From NCBI RefSeq assembly GCF_001677475.2, contig NZ_CP015229.1: DNA of 64,000 bases; one strand, 5' to 3'. This document shows, piece after piece, positions 8,963 to 24,740 of the stretch. The stretch's first letter is position 1. Every line of letters begins with the position of its first letter. Source of the stretch: Escherichia coli (lineage in GTDB: Bacteria > Pseudomonadota > Gammaproteobacteria > Enterobacterales > Enterobacteriaceae). The notes under the pieces are model-generated. The model worked only from the letters and a program-made list of their open reading frames with translations, searched no databases and was not told where the DNA came from. The translations under genes and the position numbers were made by a program.

Positions 8963-9183
8963 CAGATTAAATAATTTTATTAGTTTTATTAATGTACTTT
9001 AGGTGAATGTTTCCACCAGGTTAACATGACGGTGCATTCTTCAAGGCATATATGGTTGATAGTATCTTCAGTAGCATGCATAAGTATTGAGATGTTTTAT
9101 GCCAGCTACGAATATATTGCATGTTTTATTCTCTGTAAGATTTCTTATTAGCACTTATCCATTTCTAGTTAAAAGGATTAATT

Positions 9184-11178
9184 ATGAGTTTTGCAGCTAC
9201 AGATTATCCATCCGGCGCACTAACTGGATCGGGTACACATAACGTGACTTTGAGCGGCAGCGCAGTTCCTGATGGAATGTTACTGTTTGCAAGCTTAGGG
9301 GGTACAGAAACAGTAGGGGAACTATTTACTTATTCTATTAAATTAAAAACTCCTGACATCCTGAACCTGGGCTATGTTTCCCCCGCAGCCAACCTACAGC
9401 TCAAACCGATGGTGGGCAAAGATCTGTGCGTCAATATCGAATTGGATGGCGGCGGAAAACGTTACATCAGCGGGCTGGTGACGGCGGCACGCGTGGCTGG
9501 TCATCAAGGACGTTCGGTGGTGTATGAACTGCGGCTCGAACCGTGGTTAAAAATACTGACCCACACTAGTGACTACAAAGCGTTTCAAAATAAAAACGTG
9601 GTGGAGATCCTGGATGAGGTACTGGATGAGTACCCCTGGCCAGTGGAAAAACGACTGGTGGAAAATTATCCGACTCGCGCCTGGCAGGTGCAGTACGGTG
9701 AAACAGATTTCGATTTTATTCAGCGCCTGATGCAGGAGTGGGGTATCTACTGGTGGTTTGAGCACAGCGAGAACAGTCACACGTTAGTGCTGGCTGATGC
9801 CATTAATGTCCACAAGGCATGCGCAGATTCGCCGCTGGTGTGTTATTACCAGAAAGGGCTGAAACTGGACAAGGAGTTTATCCATACCATCACAGCAAAT
9901 GAAAGTCTGCGCAGCGGACAGTGGGTGCTGAATGATTTCGACTTTATGAAGCCGCGTTCACTGCTGAAGAGCACCGTGGCTAATCCGCGTGAAACCGGCC
10001 TTGCTGAATATGAGCACTACGAATGGCCGGGAGATTACTTCACAAAGAGTGAAGGTGAAATGCTGACACGCATTCGCATGGAAGAACAGCGTAGCCCCGG
10101 TAGTCGGGTACAGGGCAGCGGCAATATTCGTACCCTGATAACGGGTTTTACCTTCACCCTGGAAAACTATCCGACAGCCGAAGTGAACCGGGAATATCTG
10201 CTGGTACAGACCACGCTATTTATACAGGACAATGCGCAACACAGCGGCCAGGAGCAGCATTTCTCTTACTCAACCAGCTTTGAACTGCATCCCACCAGCG
10301 AAGTTTACCGCCCACAACGAACCCTGTGCAAACCCCACACTAAAGGCCCGCAGAGCGCAATCGTCACCGGCCCGGCAGGGCAGGAAATCTGGACAGATAA
10401 ATATGGACGGGTGAAAGTTCAGTTTGGCTGGGATCGTTACGGTAAGAATGACGAAAATAGTTCCTGCTGGGTCCGTGTCAGTTATCCGTGGGCGGGTAAA
10501 GGATTCGGTGGCATTCAGATCCCGCGCATTGGTCAGGAAGTACTGGTGGATTTCAAAAACGGTGATCCGGATTTACCGATAATTGTTGGGCGTACCTACA
10601 ACCAGGACACCATGCCACCGTGGGGACTACCGGGCGCAGCGACGCAAAGCGGATTTTACAGTCACACTATCGGCGGCGGCCCAACCAATGCCAACGCACT
10701 ACGTTTTGAGGATAAACCTGGCGGTGAAGAGGTCTGGCTACATGCCGAAAAAGATCAGCGGATTGAAGTAAATAATAATGAAAGCCACTGGGTGGGCAAT
10801 AATCGCCTTAAAGTCATTGATAAAACAGAAACAGCGATAATTGGTGAGGAACGTTCTCTTACAGTTCAGATGGATGATACCTCCCTTGCCGGACAAAACA
10901 AAACGATTCAGGCCGTACAGAATTTACGCCTTGCTGCGGGAGATTCCATAATTCTTAGTTGTGGGAACACTATCCTGCAAATGACCAGTGACGGAATATT
11001 TAATATAACCTGTAAGAATTTTAATATTACTGCAACAGAAAATGGAAAGATAAATACACAATCAGGTCAGCTTGATTTAAATATGAATAACAGGGCGGCA
11101 GATATACTTCCGCCTGGAACATCGGAAAAAACAGCCCTTCAATTGGCGATAGACGTCGCCTTCATGACTAAAAAATAA
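9184..11178 (+). CDS. vgrG: Type VI secretion spike protein VgrG
   Basis: 664 aa; N-terminal gp27-like and gp5-like OB/beta-helix sequence (e.g. [60 protein letters not shown]). Confidence 0.9.
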
Positions 11179-11228: not shown

Positions 11229-11681
11229 ATGACGGAGTATTATCTCAATGAAACTGTTGTAAGTTTTTCCGGGAATATTATTCAGGACAGTACTATTAAT
11301 ATGCTTCGCCTCAGCGATCCCGACGCTGCACTCATTATCAGCCGGGGCCAGATGCAGGAAGGAGACGAATTAGCCTCCCAGATTGAACAGCAAATGAAAA
11401 AACTGGAGAAACAGGTAAAGGATCTTCACTACACGCCCGTTCAGGTAACACGGGTGGGGATTAATGACGGTGAAGAAGGACTGGAAATACAGAGCCAGTT
11501 TCTCCGGGGTAACGAGCAGGTGTACCAGTGTCAGGTGGCATTTGTATTGCCGGGTGAGCGGGTCATGATGGCCTTCACCTACGCCCGAACCACACCGCTG
11601 ACCCCGGCAGATATGACGCGCTGGGCTGAAATTAAAAAGAATCTGCGCTTCAGGATGCGGCAGGAAGCCGGGACGAATTAA
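11229..11681 (+). CDS. DUF1795/Eag-family chaperone for prePAAR effectors
   Basis: 150-aa ORF between vgrG and the prePAAR Rhs gene; size and position typical of Eag/EagR chaperones; sequence-level family call not verified. Confidence 0.6.
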   Translation: MTEYYLNETVVSFSGNIIQDSTINMLRLSDPDAALIISRGQMQEGDELASQIEQQMKKLEKQVKDLHYTPVQVTRVGINDGEEGLEIQSQFLRGNEQVYQCQVAFVLPGERVMMAFTYARTTPLTPADMTRWAEIKKNLRFRMRQEAGTN

Positions 11682-11699: not shown

Positions 11700-14600
11700 A
11701 TGGAAGAGGCATTCTGGGCGGCAAGGCAGGGTGATGCCCTGCTGCATACGTCGTTTATGGCAGATGTGCTGGGGGCAGTTGTAGAGGTTGCCGCCACAGC
11801 CCTGGTGGATGTTCTGGTTGTCGGAACCATGGCGGCGCTGGGCGGAGTTGAAGTGGCAACGCTGGGCTGCTCAACCATTTTAGCGATCGGTATAGCAACA
11901 GCGGTATTTATGTCGTATCAGGGCTGGAATGACCGAATCAGTAGGGAAAGTGAGCAACTGGCGAACTGGCTTTTCCCGCCTCAGATTGAAGGTTACATCC
12001 TCACCGGCTCTGGCGACACATGGATCAACAGCAAACCTGCCGCGCGGGCCGCGGCGACTGCGGCATCGCGGCAGGACATTGAGGCGCAGGAGGCGCAGGC
12101 GAAGGCGGAACAGGAAGAAGCGCAGCGTCAGGAGGATGCCAGAACGTTCCTGGATGTGGCCGGGGAATATCTGGAAATGGCGGGGGCCATAGCCCTGGCG
12201 GTTAACCCGGTGACAGGGCCTGTGCTGATGTCCCGGGCGCTGCACGACCAGCTCAGTACGGAAGAAGGGCGTTCTGAAATGGTGGATGGCGTGACACATT
12301 TTGTGTCGGAACTATGGCAGCCCACCGTGGCCAGTGCGGCCCCGGGCTCCACCCCGACCCCTGACGATAAAATCGACTGCCATAAACATCCCTCCTCACT
12401 GACGCAGTTTCTCGCACAAAAAAAAGCCGCCTTTCTGGATGACCCCCTGGGAACGGCCCTTAACCTGCTGAGTCCGGGCGGTATGCTGGAAACCGCCTTT
12501 CAGGGAGTGAATGCGGTTATTGGCAGCATCAGTAATCTGTTCAAAGGCGATGATGAACCGCCCGCAGCGGAATATATCGCGGAAGGCGCGCGGGATGTGC
12601 GTATCAACAGCCAGCCGGCGGCACGCAGCGGGGCACGCTGCACCTGCGAGGCCAGGGTGGTGAATGAGCCGGGGAACGGGGCGTTTGTGTCACCGGATGT
12701 CCGCATTGGCGGTCCGTTACTGGTGGTCAGGGATATCAGAAGCGGCAGGTCGCAGATAACCCTGGTGGCAACCGTGGCGCTGATGTTTCTTCGCCCGGGC
12801 AAAATGCTTTCTAAAATCGCCTGTTTTGCTGCCAGTGTCGGGATGGGGGTGATGACGCAGAAGGCCATCAGTGCCCTTCCGCATCCGGTCAATGCCGCCA
12901 CCGGAGCCAAATATCTGGCCGATGACGATGATTTTGACTTCAGTCTGCCGGGCCACTTTCCGCTGGACTGGCAGCGCGTGTACAGCAGTCGTGACGACCG
13001 CACGGAAGGGATGTTCGGGCAGGGCTGGAGTGTAATGTATGAAGTCAGCCTCGAGCGCACGCCGGGTACTGCTGACGAAAACTGTATGACCTTTGTGTCG
13101 GGCATGGGACGACGTCTGGATATGGAGGCCGTGCTGCCGGGGAGCGGGTTTTACAGCCCCGGCGAAGGACTGGCAGTACGGCGGGGTGAGCAGGGGCACT
13201 GGCTTATCAGCAGCGATGACGGGCAGTTTTTTCTGTTTGAGGCCGACCCGCGTCACCCGCAGCGCCAGCGGCTGAAAATGCTGGGCGACCGCAACAGCAA
13301 CTGTCTGAATCTGTACTACGACGAGCTGGGGCGCATCACGCAAATCAGCGGTGAACAGCAGCGTCCGTGCATCCGTCTGCATTATGAACTGGCGGCGCAT
13401 CCCCGGCGGGTGACACAGATTTATCAGCATTTCCCTGAGATGGCTCCTTTACTGCTGCGTCGTTACCGCTATGACGAGGCCGGCGACCTGAACGGCGTGT
13501 ACGACAGCACGGGGCACCTGCTGCGCGAGTTTGCTTACGACGAAAACCACTGCATGACCCTGCACCGCCAGCCGGGCGGCGAAGGGTATTATTACCAGTG
13601 GGGCTGGTATGAAGGCCCGGATGACGCAGCGTGGCGGGTGACGGGGCACCACACGGACAGCGGTGAACAGTACCGGCTGGCGTGGAGCCTGGCGGCACGC
13701 AGGCTGTGCGTGACGGACGGGCTGGGGCGCACGCGTTATCATCAGTGGGACGCGCAAAATCAGGTGACGGCGTACCAGGACGAAGCCGGGCAGGTGACGA
13801 CGTTCCGCTGGAGCGACGAAGAACGGCTGTTACTGGGAATGACCGATGCGCAGGGCGGCAAATGGCGCTATGTGTATGACCGGCAGGGGCATATCACGGA
13901 GACGCACGACCCGCTGGGGCGGGTGGCACAGACACAGTGGCACCCGGTGTGGCACCAGCCGGAAACGGAGGTGGACGCGGCGGGGAACAGCTGGTGCTGT
14001 GAGTACGATGAACGCGGCAATCTTCTTGCGGTGACCGACCCGCTGCAGCAGAACACCCGGTATCAGTATGACCGCCACGGCCAGGTGGTGCAGATAACGG
14101 ATGCGCGCGGGGGGAATAAATACCTTCAGTGGAACGAAGACGGGCAGCTCATGCGGCACACGGACTGTTCCGGCTCGCAGACGGCCTGGTTCTACGACGA
14201 ACGCACGCGGCTGATACGGATGACAGACGCGCAGAGCCACAGCACGCGCTACGGGTATGACGACAGCGGCCACCTGACGGAGGTGATACTGGCGGACGGC
14301 CGCACGGTGAATTACCAGTCGGACGCGGCGGGCAGGCTGGTGAAGTACACCAGCCCGATGGGGAGGATAACGCGCTGGCAGCGGGACGGGCAGGGCCGGG
14401 TGCGCAGCCGGACAGACGCGACGGGGCGCAGGACGGCGTTCGGGTACGATGCCTACGGGCGTCTGGTCACGCTCACGAACGAGAACGGAGAAAGCTACCG
14501 GTTCCGCCATGACGTGCTGGACCGTCTGGCGGAGCAGATAAATCCGGACGGCTGCCGCCAGACGTACCGCTACAACGCGCTGAACGCGGTCACGGAAGTG

Positions 14601-16415
14601 GTGTTCACCGGGGACCGGGGCGGTGAAATCCGCCACCGGCTGGCACGTGATGCGGCGGGCCGGCTCACGGCAAAGGAGACAGCCGATGGCCATACGGAAT
14701 ACGTCCATGATGCGGCAGACCAGCTACTGGAAATCCGCCGCCGACGGTCGGATGCCGGGGAAACAGACGCACCGGAGATTATCCGTTTCAGTTACGACAG
14801 ACTGGGGCGGATGCTGACCGAGGAGACGGCGCAGGGCGTCCTGACCCATCAGTACGATGAACTCAGCAACCGGACAGCCACCACCTTTCCGGATGGCAGA
14901 ACGCAGCGTCATCTGTACTACGGCAGCGGCCATCTCCAGCAGATAAATCTGGACCGGGAGGTCATCAGCGAGTTCACACGTGACGCCCTGCACCGGGAAG
15001 TGCTCAGAAGTCAGGGGCGACTGAGCACGCGGCAGCTTTATGACCCCGCCGGGCGGCTGAAGCGCAGGGAGACATACAGCGGGATGCGCGGGGTGGTACC
15101 GGAGACGTTCACGGACCGGCAGTACAGCTACAGCGGCGAGGATGAATTGCTGAAGACGCGGCACAGCCGGCGGGGGGAAACGGATTACGTCTACGACCCC
15201 ACGGGGCGCATCACGGCGTGCCGCTCGGAGGATGAGGGGTATCTGGCGAGCTGGCAGTACGACGCGGCGGGAAACCTGCTGGGGAGGCGCGCGGGGGAAA
15301 GGGCCACGGCAGAAAACAGCGTGGTGCCGTTCAACCGGCTGATGTCTTACCGTGGTGTGCACTACCGTTATGACGAATTTGGCCGGACGGTGGAAAAGGA
15401 GGGCCGGAGCGGCACGCAGAGTTACCGTTATGATGCGGAACACCGGATGGTGGAAGTGACGACAGCGCGGGGGACATACCGGTATGTGTACGATGCGCTG
15501 GGGAGGCGGACGGAAAAACAGCACATCAGCCCTGACGGTAAAGCGTACAACCGGACGACATTTTTATGGGACGGAATGCGGCTGGCGCAGGAGAGCAGGC
15601 CGGAGGGAATAAGCAGCCTGTATATCTACAGCGACCCGGGGAGTTATGAACCGCTGGCGCGGGTGGATAAGGCGGGCAAAGAGGGCCCGAACCGGATACT
15701 GTATTTTCACACGGATGTGAACGGTGCGCCGGAAGAGATGACGGACAGTGACGGGAAAATCGTGTGGGAGACGGGGTATCAGGTCTGGGGTAACACGATA
15801 CAGGAGAAGGACCACGGCGGGGTGGAGCAGAACCTGCGCTACCAGGGACAGTACCTCGACAGGGAAACGGGGCTGCACTACAATCTGCACAGGTACTATG
15901 ATCCGGATGTCGGGCGGTTCATGGTAACGGACCCGATAGGGCTGGCGGGGGGGCTGAATCTTTATACTTATGCGCCTAATCCAGTAAGCTGGATAGATCC
16001 CCTTGGTTTAAGTTGTTACTTTAATTCTAAGTCTAATCGCTGGCATGACAGGCAGACAGGTCGTTTTACAAAACGACCAACAGATCCTTCAGAATTAGTT
16101 CATAATGGCCGAATTGACAAGGCTGATATAGATGTTTGGGCTAGTCAAGGAGGGATTCCAAATACATGGGGGCATGATCCGTTAAAATTCCCCAGTGGTG
16201 GTTTTAAATATGATGCTGGTAATTATACTGTTCATGGTCATGGTGCTAATCCATCTGCGGCAGCTAAATTTCCTAATTCTAATGCGGCAAATGGGCCGAC
16301 AGCGAGCATGAAAAATACTTCAACAGGTGAAGTGTTTAGAACCGATGGAACTTGGGGGACATTCAAATCAGATGCCAATGGTGCTCATATCCCCCTTGAT
16401 GGCTCACCTTATTGA
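11700..16415 (+). CDS. Rhs-family T6SS effector with N-terminal prePAAR motif, transmembrane segments, PAAR region, YD-repeat shell and variable C-terminal toxin domain
   Basis: 1571 aa; AARQGDALLH matches the prePAAR AARxxDxxxH motif; hydrophobic stretches follow; two ...PAAR... segments; numerous YD repeats; DPIGL...DPLGLS demarcation then low-GC 134-aa tail. Confidence 0.9.
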   Translation: MEEAFWAARQGDALLHTSFMADVLGAVVEVAATALVDVLVVGTMAALGGVEVATLGCSTILAIGIATAVFMSYQGWNDRISRESEQLANWLFPPQIEGYILTGSGDTWINSKPAARAAATAASRQDIEAQEAQAKAEQEEAQRQEDARTFLDVAGEYLEMAGAIALAVNPVTGPVLMSRALHDQLSTEEGRSEMVDGVTHFVSELWQPTVASAAPGSTPTPDDKIDCHKHPSSLTQFLAQKKAAFLDDPLGTALNLLSPGGMLETAFQGVNAVIGSISNLFKGDDEPPAAEYIAEGARDVRINSQPAARSGARCTCEARVVNEPGNGAFVSPDVRIGGPLLVVRDIRSGRSQITLVATVALMFLRPGKMLSKIACFAASVGMGVMTQKAISALPHPVNAATGAKYLADDDDFDFSLPGHFPLDWQRVYSSRDDRTEGMFGQGWSVMYEVSLERTPGTADENCMTFVSGMGRRLDMEAVLPGSGFYSPGEGLAVRRGEQGHWLISSDDGQFFLFEADPRHPQRQRLKMLGDRNSNCLNLYYDELGRITQISGEQQRPCIRLHYELAAHPRRVTQIYQHFPEMAPLLLRRYRYDEAGDLNGVYDSTGHLLREFAYDENHCMTLHRQPGGEGYYYQWGWYEGPDDAAWRVTGHHTDSGEQYRLAWSLAARRLCVTDGLGRTRYHQWDAQNQVTAYQDEAGQVTTFRWSDEERLLLGMTDAQGGKWRYVYDRQGHITETHDPLGRVAQTQWHPVWHQPETEVDAAGNSWCCEYDERGNLLAVTDPLQQNTRYQYDRHGQVVQITDARGGNKYLQWNEDGQLMRHTDCSGSQTAWFYDERTRLIRMTDAQSHSTRYGYDDSGHLTEVILADGRTVNYQSDAAGRLVKYTSPMGRITRWQRDGQGRVRSRTDATGRRTAFGYDAYGRLVTLTNENGESYRFRHDVLDRLAEQINPDGCRQTYRYNALNAVTEVVFTGDRGGEIRHRLARDAAGRLTAKETADGHTEYVHDAADQLLEIRRRRSDAGETDAPEIIRFSYDRLGRMLTEETAQGVLTHQYDELSNRTATTFPDGRTQRHLYYGSGHLQQINLDREVISEFTRDALHREVLRSQGRLSTRQLYDPAGRLKRRETYSGMRGVVPETFTDRQYSYSGEDELLKTRHSRRGETDYVYDPTGRITACRSEDEGYLASWQYDAAGNLLGRRAGERATAENSVVPFNRLMSYRGVHYRYDEFGRTVEKEGRSGTQSYRYDAEHRMVEVTTARGTYRYVYDALGRRTEKQHISPDGKAYNRTTFLWDGMRLAQESRPEGISSLYIYSDPGSYEPLARVDKAGKEGPNRILYFHTDVNGAPEEMTDSDGKIVWETGYQVWGNTIQEKDHGGVEQNLRYQGQYLDRETGLHYNLHRYYDPDVGRFMVTDPIGLAGGLNLYTYAPNPVSWIDPLGLSCYFNSKSNRWHDRQTGRFTKRPTDPSELVHNGRIDKADIDVWASQGGIPNTWGHDPLKFPSGGFKYDAGNYTVHGHGANPSAAAKFPNSNAANGPTASMKNTSTGEVFRTDGTWGTFKSDANGAHIPLDGSPY

Positions 16416-16425
16416 GATTATTAAT

Positions 16426-16755
16426 ATGAATTTGCAAGAAATAAAAAATAAAGTCTTATCTCTTCCTACAATAATGAATTTAGCGGATGAGCTATTAATA
16501 ATTGACGAGTTGATGACTATTGATGTTAATGATTTGATTGAAAATCAAGATATCTTTAAATCTATTATAGATGCATTAGAATTATCACATATTGATTCTG
16601 GGTTTATGGAGTTAACAGAAGAAAATGAGAGTTCATTTATAAACTTCTACAAATGGCTTAATAAAACAAATAATAAATTTAACTTGGGAATAAATGCTAA
16701 CACTATAGATAGTTTTAGTTTGACTGTTGAAGATGTGAAAAAAATGATGTTATAG
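16426..16755 (+). CDS. Candidate Rhs immunity protein
   Basis: Track ORF 16327..16755 overlaps the rhs 3' end; first ATG after the rhs stop is 16426 (109 aa); AT-rich like the Rhs C-terminal domain; position immediately after toxin domain. Confidence 0.5.
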   Translation: MNLQEIKNKVLSLPTIMNLADELLIIDELMTIDVNDLIENQDIFKSIIDALELSHIDSGFMELTEENESSFINFYKWLNKTNNKFNLGINANTIDSFSLTVEDVKKMML

Positions 16756-16800: not shown

Positions 16801-17130
16801 TCAACTCTCGTTCAGTACACTAAACATCCCGTTCCGCATCCCCTTAACCACCTGTTTAACCTGATAAAGCTCCTCCCGCAGTTCCTGCATCTCGTCACTG
16901 TCAGCGATGATGGTCAGGCACCCATCCGAGATCTTTACAGTCACGCCTGTCCCGGTATCAAATCCCGCCTCTTTCAGCCAGTCGCCCTTAAGGTGCAGGC
17001 TGGGGTGTTGTGAATAATACCGGGCTATACCGGTTGTGCGATCTTCGTGGCGGGCTCTGACATAGCCGACTTTATAGCGGCGCTGTGTTTTGGAAATGGT
17101 GACTTCTGGCGTAATATCGTGTTCAGCCAT
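16801..17130 (-). CDS. SymE-family toxin homolog (AbrB-fold, type I toxin family), copy 1
   Basis: 109 aa; LHLKGDWLKEAGFDTGTGVTVKISDGCLTI resembles the K-12 SymE core (LKGQWLEAAGFATGT...EGCIVLT) as I recall it; GAGGTAG RBS. Confidence 0.8.
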   Translation of the reverse strand: MAEHDITPEVTISKTQRRYKVGYVRARHEDRTTGIARYYSQHPSLHLKGDWLKEAGFDTGTGVTVKISDGCLTIIADSDEMQELREELYQVKQVVKGMRNGMFSVLNES

Positions 17131-17202: not shown

Positions 17203-17432
17203 TATCAACGCATTACCTTCATTACCTGCTTCATCTTCTCCTGCGTGATCGCCATATCCAGAATGCGGCAGATCACTTCCTGATCGTCTGCTTTAAGCTC
17301 ATCAACCTGCTTACACAGTTCCTTTAACCGCTTGTTTTTAATATCGAAAACAGGAGCGGTGGAACCTTCTTCACCCAACAGCAGGTGGTCAATACTGACT
17401 TCCAGAAGCTGGGCCAGCTTAATGATGTAATC
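17203..17432 (-). pseudogene. 3' remnant of an XRE-family HTH regulator gene truncated by the H-repeat element
   Basis: Minus-strand frame reads ...DYIIKLAQLLEVSIDHLLLGEEGSTAPVFDIKNKRLKELCKQVDELKADDQEVICRILDMAITQEKMKQVMKVMR-stop with no start codon; frame closes just inside the IS end. Confidence 0.45.
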
Positions 17433-18722
17433 AGGGAAAGATCACGTAATGCTGCTTTTTTGTACTAAACAATTCGCATTTTATGTTTAAAAATTGAGAT
17501 ATTCCTCATTACATAAAGCTGTTTTTTATTGCTTATACATGATCAAATACTCCTTACATAATTAAGGAGAACAAAATGGAACTTAAAAAATTGATGGAAC
17601 ATATTTCTATTATCCCCGATTACAGACAAGCCTGGAAAGTGGAACATAAATTATCGGATATTCTACTGTTGACTATTTGTGCCGTTATTTCGGGTGCAGA
17701 AGGCTGGGAAGATATAGAGGATTTTGGGGAAACACATCTCGATTTTTTGAAGCAATATGGTGATTTTGATAATGGTATTCCTGTTCACGATACCATTGCC
17801 AGAGTTGTATCCTGTATCAGTCCTGCAAAATTTCACGAGTGCTTTATTAACTGGATGCGTGACTGCCATTCTTCAGATGATAAAGACGTCATCGCAATTG
17901 ATGGAAAAACGCTCCGGCATTCTTATGACAAGAGTCGCCGCAGGGGAGCGATTCATGTCATTAGTGCGTTCTCAACAATGCACAGTCTGGTCATCGGACA
18001 GATCAGGACGGATGAGAAATCAAATGAAATTACAGCTATCCCTGAACTTCTTAACATGCTGGATATTAAAGGAAAAATCATCACAACTGATGCGATGGGT
18101 TGCCAGAAAGATATTGCAGAGAAGATACAAAAACAGGGAGGTGATTATTTATTCGCTGTAAAAGGAAACCAGGGGCGGCTAAATAAAGCCTTTGAGGAAA
18201 AATTCCCACTGAAAGAATTAAATAATCCAGAGCATGACAGTTACGCAATTAGTGAAAAGAGTCACGGCAGAGAAGAAATCCGTCTTCACATTGTTTGCGA
18301 TGTCCCTGATGAACTTATTGATTTCACGTTTGAATGGAAAGGACTGAAGAAATTATGCGTGGCAGTCTCCTTTCGGTCAATAATAGCAGAACAAAAGAAA
18401 GAGCCAGAAATGACGGTCAGATATTATATCAGTTCTGCTGATTTAACCGCAGAGAAGTTCGCCACAGCAATCCGAAACCACTGGCACGTGGAGAATAAGC
18501 TGCACTGGCGTCTGGACGTGGTAATGAATGAAGACGACTGCAAAATAAGAAGAGGAAACGCCGCAGAATTATTTTCAGGGATACGGCACATCGCTATTAA
18601 TATTTTAACGAATGATAAGGTATTCAAGGCAGGGTTAAGACGTAAGATGCGAAAAGCAGCCATGGACAGAAACTATCTCGCGTCAGTCCTTGCGGGGAGC
18701 GGGCTTTCGTAATCTTGCCCTG
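17432..18722 (+). mobile_element. ISAs1-family (H-repeat type) insertion sequence, intact copy
   Basis: About 1.29 kb; imperfect terminal inverted repeats CAGGGAAAGATCAC / (rc) CAGGGCAAGATTAC; single 378-aa transposase ORF. Confidence 0.75.
17576..18712 (+). CDS. ISAs1-family transposase (H-repeat-associated protein)
   Basis: 378 aa; sequence strongly resembles E. coli H-rpt proteins (YdcC/YhhI type) from memory. Confidence 0.85.
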
Positions 18723-18736
18723 ACCATCTGACGGAT

Positions 18737-18922
18737 GTGGCTGGTAATCCATCAAACATTGCTAATAGATTTTCAAAGGTCATTGATGGAAAAGATGTTC
18801 AGTTTGTTACTAAGGACTCTTTATTTGCCGGGCCGAGCGGTAAGTTTGCGCAATTTGAATCTACTTGGCAGGTTTTGGATAATGGTTCATTACGATTAAC
18901 AACAGTGATCCCGAAATTATGA
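18737..18922 (+). CDS. Possible orphan toxin C-terminal fragment downstream of the IS
   Basis: 61-codon GTG-initiated ORF whose frame opens exactly at the IS right end; AT-rich; ATGA overlap with next ORF. Confidence 0.3.
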   Translation: MAGNPSNIANRFSKVIDGKDVQFVTKDSLFAGPSGKFAQFESTWQVLDNGSLRLTTVIPKL

Positions 18923-19239
18923 TTAGAGAATTTGAAGAGAAAATGTCTGATTTGTTTGGTGTTGATGCAACATCATTCGATCCTGAATATGCGCAGTGGA
19001 CATATTTATTTAAGAAGGGTTTATTTTCACTTGAATTTGTTTATGCTCTGGATAAAACAATATCTACGGCTTTATATTATAATGAAAATTTATTGTCTTT
19101 TTATTTTGCCAATGGTCTGGAACACCTTAGCATAGAAGACAATAAAATTCATGGTGTTATTGTTAAAGGTAATACAACCAGAAAACTAGAGATAGATCCA
19201 TTAAATTTAATTATAAAATGGGAAGATTCATTAATATAA
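18919..19239 (+). CDS. Possible orphan immunity protein
   Basis: 106 aa, AT-rich, translationally coupled to the upstream fragment; same position relative to terminator/symE as the rhs immunity gene. Confidence 0.35.
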   Translation: MIREFEEKMSDLFGVDATSFDPEYAQWTYLFKKGLFSLEFVYALDKTISTALYYNENLLSFYFANGLEHLSIEDNKIHGVIVKGNTTRKLEIDPLNLIIKWEDSLI

Positions 19240-19280
19240 TGATTGCAATATTCCATTTCAATAAGAAATAACCAATAAAA

Positions 19281-19320
19281 AGCCGGAGTGCTATTAAATC
19301 TTCCGGCTTTTTTATTATTT
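19281..19320. terminator. Bidirectional rho-independent terminator (copy 2)
   Basis: AGCCGGAG-loop-CTTCCGGCT hairpin followed by TTTTTTATTATTT. Confidence 0.55.
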
Positions 19321-19648
19321 AATTCTCGTTCAGCACACTAAACATCCCGTTCCGCATCCCCTTAACCACCTGTTTAACCTGATAAAGTTCCTTCCTCAGT
19401 TCCTGCACCTCGTCGCGCTCCGCAATCAGGATCAGGCACCCCTCCGAGATTTTCACAGTCACGCCCGTCCCGGTATCAAATCCCGCCTCAGCGAGCCAGT
19501 CGCCTTTAAGGTGCAGGCTGGGGTGCCGTGAATAATACGTGGTCATGCCTGTTTTACTGTTCTGATGGCGGGCGCTGACATAGCCCACCTGATACTGGCG
19601 CTGTGTTTTGGAAATGGCGACTTCTGGCGTAATATCGTGTTCAGCCAT
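19319..19648 (-). CDS. SymE-family toxin homolog, copy 2
   Basis: 109 aa, about 80 percent identical to copy 1 by eye; same RBS and flanks. Confidence 0.8.
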   Translation of the reverse strand: MAEHDITPEVAISKTQRQYQVGYVSARHQNSKTGMTTYYSRHPSLHLKGDWLAEAGFDTGTGVTVKISEGCLILIAERDEVQELRKELYQVKQVVKGMRNGMFSVLNEN

Positions 19649-19716
19649 GATTAACTACCTCTGTTAGTTGCTTGTGGTGAGCAGATTGTCAGTGTTGGTA
19701 GCACTGGCAATCTGCG
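19642..19716 (+). ncRNA. Predicted cis-antisense sRNA overlapping symE-like start, copy 2
   Basis: Same promoter-like hexamers (about 19608-19635) and a 13-bp-arm hairpin (about 19682-19714) with a single T-G position that pairs only in the plus-strand RNA. Confidence 0.35.
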
Positions 19717-19889
19717 TTAAAAATCAGTGTATTACTCTCTTTTCCATGGAAAGATCACGTAACGCTGCTTTTTTGTACTAAATAATTCGCATTTTATGTT
19801 TAAAAATTGAGATATTCCTCATTACCTAAAGCTGTTTTTTTATTGCTTATACATGATCAAATACTCCTTACATAATTAAGGAGAACAAA

Positions 19890-20372
19890 ATGGAACTTAA
19901 AAAATTGATGGAACATATTTCTATTATCCCCGATTACAGACAAGCCTGGAAAGTGGAACATAAATTATCGGATATTCTACTGTTGACTATTTGTGCCGTT
20001 ATTTCGGGTGCAGAAGGCTGGGAAGATATAGAGGATTTTGGGGAAACACATCTCGATTTTTTGAAGCAATGTGGTGATTTTGATAATGGTATTCCTGTTC
20101 ACGATACCATTGCCAGAGTTGTATCCTGTATCAGTCCTGAAAAATTTCATGAGTGCTTTATTAACTGGATGCTTGACTGCCATTCTTCAGATGATAAAGA
20201 CGTCATTGCAATTGATGGAAAAACGCTCCGGTACTCTTATGACAAGAGTCGTCGCAAGGGAGCGATTCACGTTATTAGTGTGTTCTCAATAATGCACAGT
20301 CAGATTCCTTGGAAGATCAAGACGAATAAAAAAACAATGAGATTACAGCTGTTTCTGAATTTCTTAACATAA
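19890..20372 (+). pseudogene. Degraded second ISAs1/H-repeat transposase gene (N-terminal 130 aa conserved, then divergent and truncated)
   Basis: 160-aa ORF identical in its first part to the intact copy, then diverging into ...[31 protein letters not shown]; element upstream sequence conserved from about 19745. Confidence 0.7.
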
Positions 20373-20513
20373 TGGGTATTAAAGGAAAAATAATTGCACC
20401 GATCCAATGTGATACCAGAAAGACATCGCTAAGAAGATAGCTATAGACAATTATTACCCTCCGTCAGCCCTTGTTAAGCGAGGAGAGACGTAATCTGTCC
20501 AGTCCCCTAATGC

Positions 20514-21611
20514 TTATAAAGCCCATCGATTTCGCCCACTTTCTTTCGCCCGGTATAACGCAGCGTCGGCATCTGAAATAATTTGTTCAGCCGTTTTTGC
20601 GGGAGCAGAACAGGTAATCCCCTGACTAACCGTAACGAATGCATTAACAGCAGATGCCTGATGTGGGATAGCTGCCAGTTTAAGTTCTTGCTTCACTCTG
20701 GCTGCTACCGTCTCTGCTTCCGGCAATGTTGCATTAAAAAGTATGATGGCAAACTCTTCGCCACCATAACGGACAACAACATCCTCCGACTGGCGAGTTG
20801 AACGCTGTAGAGCGTCGGCAACTTGTATTAGACAACGATCCCCAGCAGGATGCCCGTAAGTGTCGTTGTAACGTTTAAAAAAATCGACATCCAGCATAAT
20901 AAGAGCAAATGACCCGCCGTTATCTATCGCGTCGTGTAAGATACTGTTCATTGCACGTCGGTTTGCTATCCCAGTTAAAGGATCACGATGTGCTAATGCA
21001 TCAAGGCGATTAATTAACTGGTTGTTATAACTGTTTTGTACCCATGCTTCTTCAAACCAACGTAACAAAATGAGTCGCCCACCATATAGCGCCAGTGAAA
21101 AAATACACCATACAACAGCAAAATGAATATTGATCTGTTGATTAAGCATAAGACTCGCTATTGGAGTGGTGAACCATAAGGGAATGACAAATGCGAGCAA
21201 TGATGGGGTATGGAAATAAAGTGCGACAACGCCACTAAGCATTAATAATACACATAGTGGATAAGCAAACTGCAGCGTCCAGTACGCAATAAAGTGATAA
21301 CTACACCATGACCATAGCAGGCTCAGGGCAACTAATAGCACCTGGATAGGTAATGTTTTTTGCCGAGGGATGAGTAGTAAACCACTGCAAATCAGCAGAA
21401 TACCCGTTGCAGATATATCAATAGAATGTATAAGGCTTTTTTCATTTAACCAGGGTGGAGTAAGGTCATTAAACAGAACACGGCGCAGCAAAATTATCAA
21501 TGCAAAACTGACATTGATAAAAGCAAACCATGGCAAACTAATCGTCATGCCGCGAATAACCATATCGCGGCGGGTTTTCCATGAGTGATGCGTTTTTCTT
21601 CGTTCAGCCAT
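20514..21611 (-). CDS. Membrane-anchored diguanylate cyclase (GGDEF domain)
   Basis: 365 aa; N-terminal hydrophobic helices; RYGGEEF active-site motif. Confidence 0.8.
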   Translation of the reverse strand: MAERRKTHHSWKTRRDMVIRGMTISLPWFAFINVSFALIILLRRVLFNDLTPPWLNEKSLIHSIDISATGILLICSGLLLIPRQKTLPIQVLLVALSLLWSWCSYHFIAYWTLQFAYPLCVLLMLSGVVALYFHTPSLLAFVIPLWFTTPIASLMLNQQINIHFAVVWCIFSLALYGGRLILLRWFEEAWVQNSYNNQLINRLDALAHRDPLTGIANRRAMNSILHDAIDNGGSFALIMLDVDFFKRYNDTYGHPAGDRCLIQVADALQRSTRQSEDVVVRYGGEEFAIILFNATLPEAETVAARVKQELKLAAIPHQASAVNAFVTVSQGITCSAPAKTAEQIISDADAALYRAKESGRNRWAL

Positions 21612-21657
21612 TTTTTAACCAAAAAAGGGCAGGATACCTGCCCGGTATGCAGTAAAT

Positions 21658-23634
21658 TTATGGTGTCACTATATTGAACCAAAATTCAAAATTATCCATA
21701 TAACCTAACAGCTCGTTGAGTTTTTCCGCATTGCCAGTAATTTTGACATCTCCTTTGGCCGTGGCTTCTTTCAGCGTCTCTTCTTTCAGTACAATTTTGT
21801 TCAATACATCACGAGACAGAGTGATAGTGGCATCAGCATCCGAAGCCTCTACACCAGCGGTATGATTGAGAACACCATTTTCAAGCTCCACTTTATAGGT
21901 GCCGCCATCTTCACCAAAATCGAAATTCAACACGGTTTTGGCATCTGCCGCTTTCTCACCATTAATATGGACGGCAAGATAATCAAAGAACATCTCCGGC
22001 GTCATCGCACGCACGGTGTCTGGGCTGGCAGTATTTGGTGTTGGTAATTTTTGTACGCCATTACGCAATTCCTGTGCGCCAGTGAGATAGAAATTACGCC
22101 ACGGCCCAGATTCAGCCTGATAGCCTAACTGCTCAAGCGCATCAGCTTCCAGATCTCTCGCTGCCTGGTTGTTTGGATCGGCAAACACCACCTTACTAAC
22201 AACTTGGGCAACCCAGCGGAAATTACCCTGGTCATAATCCTGTTTGGCTTTCTGTAAAATGGTATCAGCACCGCCCATATACTCGACGAATTTTTTTGCG
22301 CCTTCTTCTGGCGGCAGTTCATCAAGCGTCGCGGGGTTACCATCAAACCAGCCGAGATAAAGCACGTAAGTTGCTTTCACGTCATGACTTACCGAACCGT
22401 AATAGCCGCGATTCGCCCAGGTGTTAGCCAGTGAAGAGGGCAGTTTAAAGTTTGCGGCAATTTCATCACGGGTCTTCCCTTGATTAGCCATGCGCAGAGT
22501 TTGATCATTGATGTAACGATACAAATCACGCTGGCTTTTAAGCAGTTTGACCACGTTATCGTTGCCCCAGGTTGGCCAGTGATGTTGAGCGAGAATAATC
22601 TCGGCTTTATCACCCCACAAATTGAGAGCTTCATTAATATATTTTGACCACGGCAGCGGTTGGCGAATTTTAGCCCCACGCAGCGAATAGGTGTTATGAA
22701 GGGTGTGCGTGACATCTTCAGCGGTTTCGATCAGTTTCTTTTCTTCAATAAACCACAGCATTTCAGAAGGCGCTTCAGAACCTGGCGCCATCAGGAAATC
22801 ATAAGTCAACCCGTCAATAGTTTCTTTTTGTCCGGTTTTGGTGATGTAGTTAGTAGGAGCAATCAACGTGACTGTTCCTGCTGAAGTAGTCGTTCCCAGT
22901 CCAGCCCCCACCTGGCCTTTAACATCAGGTTTCAATAAGTTGCCATACATATAACTGGCTCGTCGGCTCATAACATTGCCAGCCATGATGTTTTCGGAAA
23001 CGGCTTCCTCCAAAAATCCGGCTGGCGCATAGATTTTAACTTTGCCTGATTTAACGTCAGCTTCATCAATTACGCCACGAACACCACCGTAGTGATCGAC
23101 ATGACTGTGTGTATAGATAACCGCCACTACCGGTTTTTTGCCGCGATTTTTGTAATAGAGATCCATACCCACTTTGGCTGTTTCTGCTGAAACAAGGGGA
23201 TCAACGACGGTAATACCCTCTTTGCCTTCAATGATGGTCATATTTGATAGATCGAGATTGCGAATCTGATAGACACCTTCAGTTACTTCGAATAACCCGC
23301 TGATATTTATCAGTTGCGCCTGACGCCATAAACTCGGATTCACCGTATCAGGGGCTTTATCGCCTTCTTTGATAAAAGCGTATTGTTGTGGATCCCAGAT
23401 AACATTCCCTTGTTCGCCCTTAATCACGTCTTGAGGAATAGGGGCAATAAAACCTTTATGGGCATCAGTAAAGTCAGTGTTATCGGCAAACGGCAACTGG
23501 TTGTAGAGTAAATTGTTTGCTTGTTGCGTGGCTGCGGTGGCGTCTTTAGGAGCTTCCGCCGCGAGGAGAGGTAAAGAACTGGTGGTGAATAATCCCGTTA
23601 TTAGCAGACTTTTAACGATATGATTAAGCTGCAT
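21658..23634 (-). CDS. Secreted alkyl/aryl-sulfatase-like metallo-beta-lactamase-fold enzyme (SdsA1/YjcS type)
   Basis: 658 aa; signal peptide; THSHVDHYGG metallo-beta-lactamase motif; overall resemblance to alkyl sulfatases (from memory). Confidence 0.75.
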   Translation of the reverse strand: MQLNHIVKSLLITGLFTTSSLPLLAAEAPKDATAATQQANNLLYNQLPFADNTDFTDAHKGFIAPIPQDVIKGEQGNVIWDPQQYAFIKEGDKAPDTVNPSLWRQAQLINISGLFEVTEGVYQIRNLDLSNMTIIEGKEGITVVDPLVSAETAKVGMDLYYKNRGKKPVVAVIYTHSHVDHYGGVRGVIDEADVKSGKVKIYAPAGFLEEAVSENIMAGNVMSRRASYMYGNLLKPDVKGQVGAGLGTTTSAGTVTLIAPTNYITKTGQKETIDGLTYDFLMAPGSEAPSEMLWFIEEKKLIETAEDVTHTLHNTYSLRGAKIRQPLPWSKYINEALNLWGDKAEIILAQHHWPTWGNDNVVKLLKSQRDLYRYINDQTLRMANQGKTRDEIAANFKLPSSLANTWANRGYYGSVSHDVKATYVLYLGWFDGNPATLDELPPEEGAKKFVEYMGGADTILQKAKQDYDQGNFRWVAQVVSKVVFADPNNQAARDLEADALEQLGYQAESGPWRNFYLTGAQELRNGVQKLPTPNTASPDTVRAMTPEMFFDYLAVHINGEKAADAKTVLNFDFGEDGGTYKVELENGVLNHTAGVEASDADATITLSRDVLNKIVLKEETLKEATAKGDVKITGNAEKLNELLGYMDNFEFWFNIVTP

Positions 23635-23939
23635 CTTAAGCGTCTCCAGAATGGATTTTTATTGGAGGTAATTACGGATGAAAATTTTTAGTGAGGGCAA
23701 GAATAACTATAATGGGCGTTAACAAATTGGCAAGCCGGGAACTTGATGTTTTCTTAATGGCATGTTGGCGAAGAATATATTCTGCAAGTTAACGTTTTCA
23801 TTGGCGCTTTATTTAAAAGTGTGTAGTACAAATATGTACAATTTCAAGTAGGCATTATTGCCGTAAAAACGCATTACCGGACACACGACATTCACAACGT
23901 GTGTTAATTTTACTGACATCTTTCAAAAGGAGCACAATC

Positions 23940-24167
23940 ATGCCGCACATAGACATTAAATGTTTTCCGCGTGAACTGGACGAACAACAAAAAGCAGCAC
24001 TTGCTGCAGATATTACCGACGTTATTATTCGCCATCTGAACAGTAAAGATAGCTCGATAAGCATTTCTCTACAGCAGATTCAACCAGAATCTTGGCAAGC
24101 TATCTGGGATGCCGAAATCGAGCCCCAAATGGAGGCTTTGATAAAGAAACCCGGTTACAGCATGTAA
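23940..24167 (+). CDS. pptA: Tautomerase PptA
   Basis: [33 protein letters not shown]... start at internal Met of track ORF 23901..24167. Confidence 0.8.
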
Positions 24168-24170
24168 TGC

Positions 24171-24740
24171 TTAACCTGCCGTAACACGCTTGCCGCTGGT
24201 AACAAATGTGCCAGCACCTAAATGATGCAACGTATTGAGTTTATCATCATCAAACTGCCAGCGGCCTTCGACAAATACCCGTGCGTCTGCCGCTGCTGAT
24301 ACTACCTCGCCAAACAGAGTGTCGTATTTTTCTTGCGCAGAAGTCGCAGGTAGCAGGCGACACTCCATCCACGCCAGACATTTTTCCTCGACCAGCGGCA
24401 AACCAAGCACCGGACCTTTCACAACTGGAATACCATAGCAATTAAACTTATCTTCATCACGCCCCGACACACTTCCCACCGCCCACGTCCAGTTAGTTGC
24501 TGCAACACCCGGGATAACGATGCCAAACTTACCATTACGTTCAATCAACTCCCTGGTCCATGTCGATTTATCTACCACAATCGCCACGCGTGGCGGTTCA
24601 AACTCCACCGGCATCGACCAGGCTGCTGCCATAATGTTACGCCGCTGGGATTGCTCATCGAAACTGGTGATCAAGACAGTAGGTCCATGATTTAACAGAC
24701 GGCTGGCATGGTGTAATTCGACGGGAATGAATTGGCTCAC
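24171..24740 (-). CDS. yddH: Flavin reductase-like protein YddH
   Basis: 189-aa ORF; matches E. coli YddH from memory; synteny. Confidence 0.75.
   Translation of the reverse strand: MSQFIPVELHHASRLLNHGPTVLITSFDEQSQRRNIMAAAWSMPVEFEPPRVAIVVDKSTWTRELIERNGKFGIVIPGVAATNWTWAVGSVSGRDEDKFNCYGIPVVKGPVLGLPLVEEKCLAWMECRLLPATSAQEKYDTLFGEVVSAAADARVFVEGRWQFDDDKLNTLHHLGAGTFVTSGKRVTAG

Follow-up and report, generated by a model that had tools for sequence, protein, structure and literature searches.

The chromosomal site examined here is known from Escherichia coli K-12, where MG1655 has the order rhsE-ydcD-yncO-yncI-ydcC-pptA. Two kinds of protein described elsewhere provide the closest comparisons for the genes that we find at this site in other E. 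coli. DgcX of enteroaggregative E. coli (EAEC) and O104:H4 is an accessory diguanylate cyclase (DGC) with an eight-helix YcdT-like (MASE4) domain of ~270 residues and an RxxD inhibitory site (I-site), encoded beside lambdoid prophages at attB (PMC4287979, Richter et al. 2014). For a MASE5-GGDEF protein a published table lists no MG1655 counterpart (PMC7232144). Alkyl sulfatases of the SdsA1/YjcS type, in turn, have several members of solved structure. We analyzed a 64,000-nucleotide stretch of E. coli DNA (the window; all coordinates are window positions), in which a gene for a MASE5-GGDEF diguanylate cyclase (hereafter dgc) and a gene for a secreted alkyl sulfatase lie side by side between a truncated copy of the insertion sequence (IS) ISEc1 and pptA. 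Compared with K-12 alone, this gene pair looks IS-borne. Our results point the other way: the pair very likely belongs to the ancestral Escherichia chromosome, and K-12 represents a derived, deleted state. Genes were called from a listing of open reading frames (ORFs) together with Pfam and NCBIfam profile searches of the window proteins, and the locus comprises the following features:

17432-18722, plus strand: complete ISEc1 (ISAs1 family, 'H-repeat'), orthologue of K-12 ydcC, with transposase ORF 17576-18712
19745-20439, plus strand: truncated ISEc1 copy, left end and 695 of 1291 bp, with degraded transposase ORF 19890-20372
20440-20513, no strand: 74-bp spacer separating the IS remnant from the dgc stop codon
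20514-21611, minus strand: dgc, inner-membrane diguanylate cyclase of 365 residues (Pfam MASE5 and GGDEF)
21627-21643, minus strand: hairpin resembling an intrinsic terminator, GGGCAGG-TAT-CCTGCCC followed by T6, directly after the sulfatase stop
21658-23634, minus strand: secreted type III (metallo-beta-lactamase fold) alkyl/aryl sulfatase of 658 residues, with three Pfam domains
23635-23939, no strand: divergent intergenic region between sulfatase and pptA, holding the common deletion break points 23707, 23851 and 23890
23940-24167, plus strand: pptA (tautomerase), the first core gene rightward (NCBIfam PRK01271 PptA, 155 bits)

The ORFs and profile matches agree with the initial annotation of this locus, which had named a GGDEF cyclase, an SdsA1-type sulfatase and pptA at these positions and had noted a truncated second H-repeat at the border. 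Its statement that pptA directly follows the rhs/H-repeat region in K-12 is likewise correct, as ydcC and pptA are neighbours in MG1655.

We consider it very likely that dgc and the sulfatase gene are vertically inherited members of the yncG-yddH interval in Escherichia and part of Citrobacter, and that deletions associated with an inserted rhs/ISEc1 island have eroded them. Conserved synteny in outgroups, divergence comparable to that of neighbouring genes, E. coli carriers free of the island and deletion scars in non-carriers together indicate an ancestral pair and tie the IS to its loss, not its gain.

Among 5426 complete E. coli genomes, 438 carry the pair (440 in a second search), or about 8%. 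Nearly all of them have one of two junctions on the dgc side. In 343 genomes, as in the window, the IS remnant precedes dgc, and in 87 genomes yncG does so. The latter arrangement is exemplified by FDAARGOS_1268, with the order ansP-yncG|dgc-sulfatase-pptA-yddH and no rhs, vgrG or IS; here the yncG stop codon abuts that of dgc. In such island-free genomes the 3′ end of yncG stands in place of the 74-bp spacer and the last two dgc codons are different (EK-stop instead of AL-stop), which places the right border of the island inside the 3′ end of dgc. The K-12 arrangement is different again. ISEc1 of K-12 aligns to 17432-18722 and the next base after its right end aligns to 23851; K-12 therefore lacks 5128 bp (18723-23850), starting exactly at the IS end.

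Genomes without the pair turned out to have several different end points. Break points were read from an evenly spaced sample (60 rows) of the 4682 records matching 23300-24200, and counts given below as 'about' are extrapolated from that sample; a further 757 genomes have no match to this segment. Direct junction counts for the IAI1 and LS4 types were inflated, as pieces within ~580 bp had been joined, and were discarded in favour of the sample proportions (~14 and ~7 of 60, respectively). The K-12-type count is an upper bound that includes the ~84 ST648-type genomes. By the position at which homology to the window resumes, the states are:

whole pair present: 440 genomes
23565, also given as 23566 (ST648): 84 genomes, abutting a complete ISEc1 right end
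23707 (DETEC-C31): about 160 genomes, abutting non-IS sequence on the rhs side
23851 (K-12, O157:H7): at most 2290 genomes, abutting a complete ISEc1 right end
23890 (IAI1): about 1100 genomes, abutting a truncated IS
24111, inside pptA (LS4): about 550 genomes, abutting a complete ISEc1 right end
24139 (LI60C3): about 80 genomes, abutting non-IS sequence on the rhs side

At three of these break points, the complete right end of ISEc1 (...TAATCTTGCCCTG; also given as ...CTTGCCCTG) is joined directly to retained sequence. Several end points starting from a single IS end are the pattern expected of IS-adjacent deletion or of recombination between IS copies. Moreover, the ST648 type still has the promoter region of the sulfatase gene together with the first 70 bp of its coding sequence, so the gene must have been present before the deletion. 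Target-site duplications were sought around each ISEc1 copy and none was found, which fits rearrangement, though the duplication length expected for this family was left unchecked. In LS4 (NZ_CP024717.1, L008 3042-5061), the interval from ansP to yddH has shrunk to one complete ISEc1; it has lost yncG, yncH, the rhs island in its entirety, dgc, the sulfatase gene and most of pptA, which implies deletions on both sides of the IS. Separately, individual carriers show ongoing decay of the pair. An IS21-family element interrupts dgc in APEC E956 (NZ_CP087294.1), an ISKpn26-like IS5 element lies within dgc of NZ_OZ546925.1, and the sulfatase gene of GF3-3 (NZ_CP053259.1) has an internal stop.

Outside E. 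coli, cyclase homologues were found at 94%, 82%, 79%, 77% and 65% identity. Exact identity of neighbouring proteins assigned the 94% contig to E. whittamii, the 77% contig to E. marmotae and the 65% contig to Citrobacter koseri. The first two have the order nhoA-yddH-pptA-sulfatase-dgc and align to the window as single ~5-kb high-scoring segment pairs (HSPs) at 93.5% and 83.3% nucleotide identity, respectively. The 82% contig has sulfatase-dgc, and C. koseri has narZYWV-nhoA-yddH-dgc-yncG, with no sulfatase. In C. sedlakii the order is yddH-sulfatase-yncG-ansP-yncE-pqqU-mcbR. One E. albertii genome (JAMXND010000018.1) reads yddH-pptA-sulfatase and then passes into SymE/rhs sequence from the equivalent of window position 21610, so that dgc alone has been lost; this junction adds one more independent end point of deletion linked to the island, in a species other than E. 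coli. The SymE-like and rhs sequence there (L108 ~9025-9900) is inverted relative to the window and abuts the sulfatase terminator. In a scan of contigs with the cyclase as query, the matches listed were generic GGDEF ones, at no more than 49% identity over that domain alone, and have no bearing on orthologues.

Rates of divergence agree with this synteny. Synonymous divergence (dS) of dgc and the sulfatase gene is 0.16-0.18 relative to E. whittamii and 0.81-0.90 relative to E. marmotae, the corresponding values for the flanking pptA, yddH and nhoA being 0.17-0.47 and 0.56-1.23. The ratio of nonsynonymous to synonymous divergence (dN/dS) is 0.14-0.23 for dgc in comparisons with other Escherichia species and 0.03-0.07 for the sulfatase gene. 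With dS within or below the range of the flanks and dN/dS of 0.03-0.23, the two genes are under purifying selection and have diverged jointly with their core neighbours.

These results bear directly on the origin proposed in the initial annotation, namely that an ISAs1/H-repeat event, either a composite transposon or an IS-linked insertion next to pptA, brought in the pair. An IS remnant does border the dgc side, carriers make up just ~8% of E. coli, and the GC content of the pair is somewhat low. However, the IS is on one side alone, and what lies on the other is the pptA intergenic region in its native form; the pair occurs without any IS in 87 E. coli genomes; the pair is syntenic in E. whittamii and E. 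marmotae, and single genes occur in Citrobacter; its divergence matches that of the flanking genes; and deletion junctions still hold remnants of the 5′ end of the sulfatase gene. Thus, the locus does not have the properties of a horizontally acquired islet, and we regard IS-mediated acquisition as having almost no likelihood. The accessory status proposed together with it is borne out by the survey. The same annotation had set its proposal against the possibility that most E. coli, K-12 included, have these genes at this position. They do not, but a low frequency of this kind cannot separate gain from loss.

The probable history of the locus can be reconstructed as follows. The original order would have been ansP-yncG | dgc-sulfatase-pptA | yddH-nhoA-narVWYZ. 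A type VI secretion system (T6SS) cargo island, made up of vgrG, PAAR-Rhs toxin/immunity modules, SymE-like genes and ISEc1 copies, would then have come to lie between yncG and the dgc 3′ end. Subsequent deletions from ISEc1 ends (IS-adjacent or by IS-IS recombination) or within rhs probably removed dgc, the sulfatase gene and sometimes pptA in ~90% of E. coli lineages, K-12 among them. The window would represent an intermediate state, with the island in place, the pair intact and an old IS remnant at the border.

Not all observations sit comfortably with this history, and several weigh against it. None of the outgroup contigs was seen to hold yncG, dgc, the sulfatase gene and pptA together, so that the ancestral order is a parsimony reconstruction from FDAARGOS_1268 and partial outgroup contigs. 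The GC content of the pair, ~0.40-0.50 in 500-bp windows, is below the ~0.51-0.54 of the nar side and could hint at a foreign origin, though pptA and yddH are also low. Finally, the identity between the window and FDAARGOS_1268 is a mosaic over 3.6 kb (dgc 99.7%, sulfatase 97.8%, pptA 94.7%, yddH 96.0%). Such a mosaic implies recombination break points inside the locus and movement of alleles by homologous recombination, and some carriers may have regained the segment instead of having kept it.

Taken further, the last point gives an account in which the pair is ancestral to the genus but E. coli carriers largely regained it, through homologous recombination with other lineages of E. coli or Escherichia that supplied a fragment reaching from pptA to the island. 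Besides the mosaic of dgc, sulfatase and pptA identities between the two carrier types, it can draw on the fact that a junction at least 99% identical is common to 343 genomes and on the identical ISEc1 truncation point in E. coli and E. whittamii-type contigs. Indeed, this point, AGAAGATA|GCTATAGAC (20439|20440), is the same in the window, in MEI003, in GF3-3 (which has a 96% allele) and in the E. whittamii-type contigs; these versions of the remnant differ solely by further internal deletions. Its presence in divergent carriers means that the island and its IS scar are old or were spread by recombination. The 74-bp spacer is kept in E. coli GF3-3 and the E. whittamii-type contigs, and partly in E. 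marmotae. On the other hand, the pptA side has neither mobility functions nor junction scars, and the carrier divergence classes (99.6%, 98.4% and 96.1%) look like ordinary lineage divergence. Large-scale regain is therefore possible but, in our judgement, rather unlikely, and it is compatible with an ancestral pair eroded by deletion rather than opposed to it.

The product of dgc has sequence features of an active membrane-bound cyclase. MASE5 (PF17178) scores 150.8 bits against a cut-off of 25.2 and is matched over profile positions 2-192 of 192; GGDEF (PF00990) scores 165.1 bits (cut-off 23.8) over the full 161-position profile, and TIGR00254 scores 157.3 bits (cut-off 37.4). Six hydrophobic segments between residues 24 and 183, as expected of a polytopic MASE5 membrane domain, put both termini in the cytoplasm. 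The active-site motif is intact (RYGGEEF at residues 281-287), and GGEEF is invariant in 13 homologues down to 48% identity. The protein has no RxxD I-site: the corresponding stretch is R273-Q-S-E-D277 (RxxxD), with the Asp in register and the Arg one position too far, and the RQSED spacing is common to all 13 aligned homologues. Judging by these motifs, the cyclase is probably an active enzyme that makes cyclic di-GMP (c-di-GMP) from GTP without canonical product inhibition, gated by a membrane signal through its six-helix MASE5 domain.

The annotated start of this protein is probably too short. Its RefSeq relatives begin at an internal ATG (21563), giving 349 residues, while the first in-frame ATG is at 21611. 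No stop interrupts the 16 codons upstream of ATG 21563 in E. coli, E. whittamii or E. marmotae, and the W-x-T/K-R-x-x-M-V pattern of these residues is kept in cyclase homologues of Citrobacter, Enterobacter, Lelliottia and Hafnia. This conservation suggests that the 365-residue form is probably real; a Shine-Dalgarno sequence is not clear at either ATG (21611 or 21563). A Salmonella homologue (P0074) has no encoding contig on record, and an exact-sequence look-up matched neither the cyclase nor the sulfatase of the window in the collection searched. The sole functional hint that we found for the MASE5-GGEEF family is a promoter listing: in Pantoea sp. YR343, such a gene has a promoter with higher activity in biofilm and on roots (PMC8294551).

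The sulfatase shows the complete three-domain architecture of the SdsA1/YjcS type, with the metallo-beta-lactamase (MBL) domain (Lactamase_B, PF00753, 69.8 bits) followed by the dimerisation domain (Alkyl_sulf_dimr, PF14863, 211.5 bits) and the SCP2-like C-terminal domain (Alkyl_sulf_C, PF14864, 151.9 bits). As to zinc ligands, the check was limited to the HxHxDH motif, which is present as HSHVDH at residues 176-181. The N-terminus has a hydrophobic, signal-like segment (...LPLLAAEAP). In a phmmer search the protein aligned end to end with its best solved relatives, 7TL5, SdsAP (4NUR), YjcS (4PDX), Pisa1 (2YHE) and SdsA1 (2CFU). The enzyme is thus predicted to be exported to the periplasm and to hydrolyse alkyl sulfate esters via a binuclear zinc site. 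Its identity to the K-12 paralogue YjcS is 49%, meaning that carriers have a second periplasmic alkyl sulfatase. A promoter-like site for its gene, by consensus match alone, lies at 23706-23733 on the minus strand.

Do the two genes constitute a functional unit? They are on the same strand with the sulfatase gene first, and the first ATG of dgc (21611) is 16 nt past the T-run of the terminator-like hairpin, a gap too short to hold a promoter for dgc after the hairpin. Both the hairpin and its T-run are conserved in E. whittamii; E. marmotae has them with one mismatch. Transcription of dgc may therefore depend on read-through, or it may start from a promoter inside the 3′ end of the sulfatase gene. 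The co-directional arrangement without space for a separate promoter is one argument for a module in which the sulfatase would cleave alkyl sulfates, be they surfactants or sulfate esters of host or dietary origin, and MASE5 would sense the substrate or its fatty-alcohol product and raise c-di-GMP, dgc being expressed by terminator read-through. Another is that the genes have stayed adjacent not only in E. coli but also in E. whittamii, E. marmotae and one more lineage, with dgc at 81-82% protein identity. There is also a parallel in Pseudomonas aeruginosa, where exposure to sodium dodecyl sulfate (SDS) leads to c-di-GMP-dependent aggregation through SiaD. Yet a strong and conserved terminator separates the two genes, and they evolve at very different rates. 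Each also occurs without the other: C. koseri has dgc without the sulfatase gene, and C. sedlakii and E. albertii have the reverse. Furthermore, the Enterobacter homologue (~51% identity) is flanked by tynA and feaB, and no sulfatase gene is found in its vicinity. On balance such a module is improbable, and dgc and the sulfatase gene are probably neighbours rather than functional partners. Slightly more doubtful still is the view of the sulfatase and the MASE5 cyclase as a surfactant/sulfate-ester response unit, in which read-through would couple their expression and alkyl sulfates or the long-chain alcohols set free from them, sensed by MASE5, would induce a c-di-GMP-high, aggregated state. 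Were it true, it would provide the first ligand class for MASE5 and explain the retention of the pair in some E. coli lineages, such as avian- and environment-associated ones.

The island on the left of the pair deserves a brief description. The complete ISEc1 is 96.7% identical to K-12 ydcC over 1291 bp and has both features of an intact element, two terminal inverted repeats (CAGGGAAAGATCA...TAATCTTGCCCTG) and a full DDE transposase (Pfam DDE_Tnp_1_assoc and DDE_Tnp_1); no direct repeat was found on its flanks. The second copy is a remnant. It retains the left terminal repeat at 19745 (CATGGAAAGATCA...), is homologous to K-12 ydcC/ISEc1 DNA over 19770-20439 (91.5% identity), and its transposase ORF encodes a 160-residue N-terminal piece matching Pfam DDE_Tnp_1_assoc alone and positions 1-122 of 314 in NCBIfam transpos_ISAs1. 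In an E. whittamii-type metagenome contig (L091:1842-3330), two ORFs of 216 and 263 residues without Pfam match sit between the dgc downstream spacer and the ISAs1 left end, in the place of the IS interior of the window. The remaining features of the island are:

9184-11178: vgrG, preceding the PAAR-Rhs gene
11229-11681: DcrB-related gene, preceding the PAAR-Rhs gene
11700-16415: PAAR-Rhs protein (PAAR-DUF6531-RHS, 1571 residues), from the profile search
16801-17130, minus strand: second SymE-family copy (Pfam SymE_toxin)
19319-19648, minus strand: SymE-family type I toxin-like gene of the rhs island (Pfam SymE_toxin)

Toward the C-terminal tip of the PAAR-Rhs gene, the GC content falls from ~0.6 to ~0.39 near 16000, and a 142-residue ORF (16327-16755) with no Pfam or NCBIfam match overlaps its end; together they look like a swapped toxin tip and its immunity gene. 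The two SymE-like genes (109 residues each; 74 and 77.9 bits) both lie within a ~390-bp repeated segment of the island, behind an Rhs C-terminal/immunity module. The SymE-plus-rhs arrangement is also present in MEI003, GF3-3, LI60C3 and E. albertii.

All components of the locus (gene families, IS and rhs region) are of known kinds, RefSeq annotates the genes routinely, nothing suggests a novel type of system, and the process is one of ordinary genome erosion. The value of the case is mainly corrective, as the comparison with K-12 alone is what suggests an IS-borne pair. The locus is also an example of a T6SS rhs island with ISEc1 copies eroding its surroundings, with at least six deletion end points across the 5426 genomes, and of the loss of c-di-GMP genes from E. 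coli through such deletions. Relative to K-12, carriers have one more active-looking diguanylate cyclase in addition to the second alkyl sulfatase, which could matter for biofilm and detergent phenotypes.

How, then, does the locus compare with described systems? Povolotsky & Hengge 2016 (J Bacteriol 198:111) and Hengge et al. 2016 reportedly introduced the E. coli pangenome cyclase DgcY and the nomenclature, and MASE5 is said to have been defined there alongside MASE4. The window cyclase is probably DgcY, a membrane-associated non-K-12 GGDEF protein; a literature search on DgcY, MASE5 and the WP accessions, which did not cover the two J Bacteriol papers, found nothing usable for E. coli. Like DgcX, the window cyclase is membrane-bound, accessory and absent from K-12, and its GGEEF-type active site is intact. 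Unlike DgcX, it has a six-helix MASE5 domain and no RxxD, there are no prophage genes within the locus, and its site is yncG-pptA. We therefore rejected identity with DgcX on the grounds of sensor domain, I-site and locus. The sulfatase resembles SdsA1, SdsAP, Pisa1 and YjcS in its MBL domain with HxHxDH, its dimerisation and SCP2-like domains, its full-length alignment and its N-terminal export signal. It differs in being just 49% identical to YjcS and closest to SdsAP and the uncharacterised 7TL5. As for the RhsE/H-repeat region of K-12, the chromosomal site is the same, the complete IS matches ydcC at 96.7% identity and both have an rhs element upstream. The window, in contrast, has a full PAAR-Rhs gene with vgrG and T6SS genes as well as two SymE-like genes, and to the right of the IS it retains the 5.1 kb (18723-23850) that K-12 lacks.

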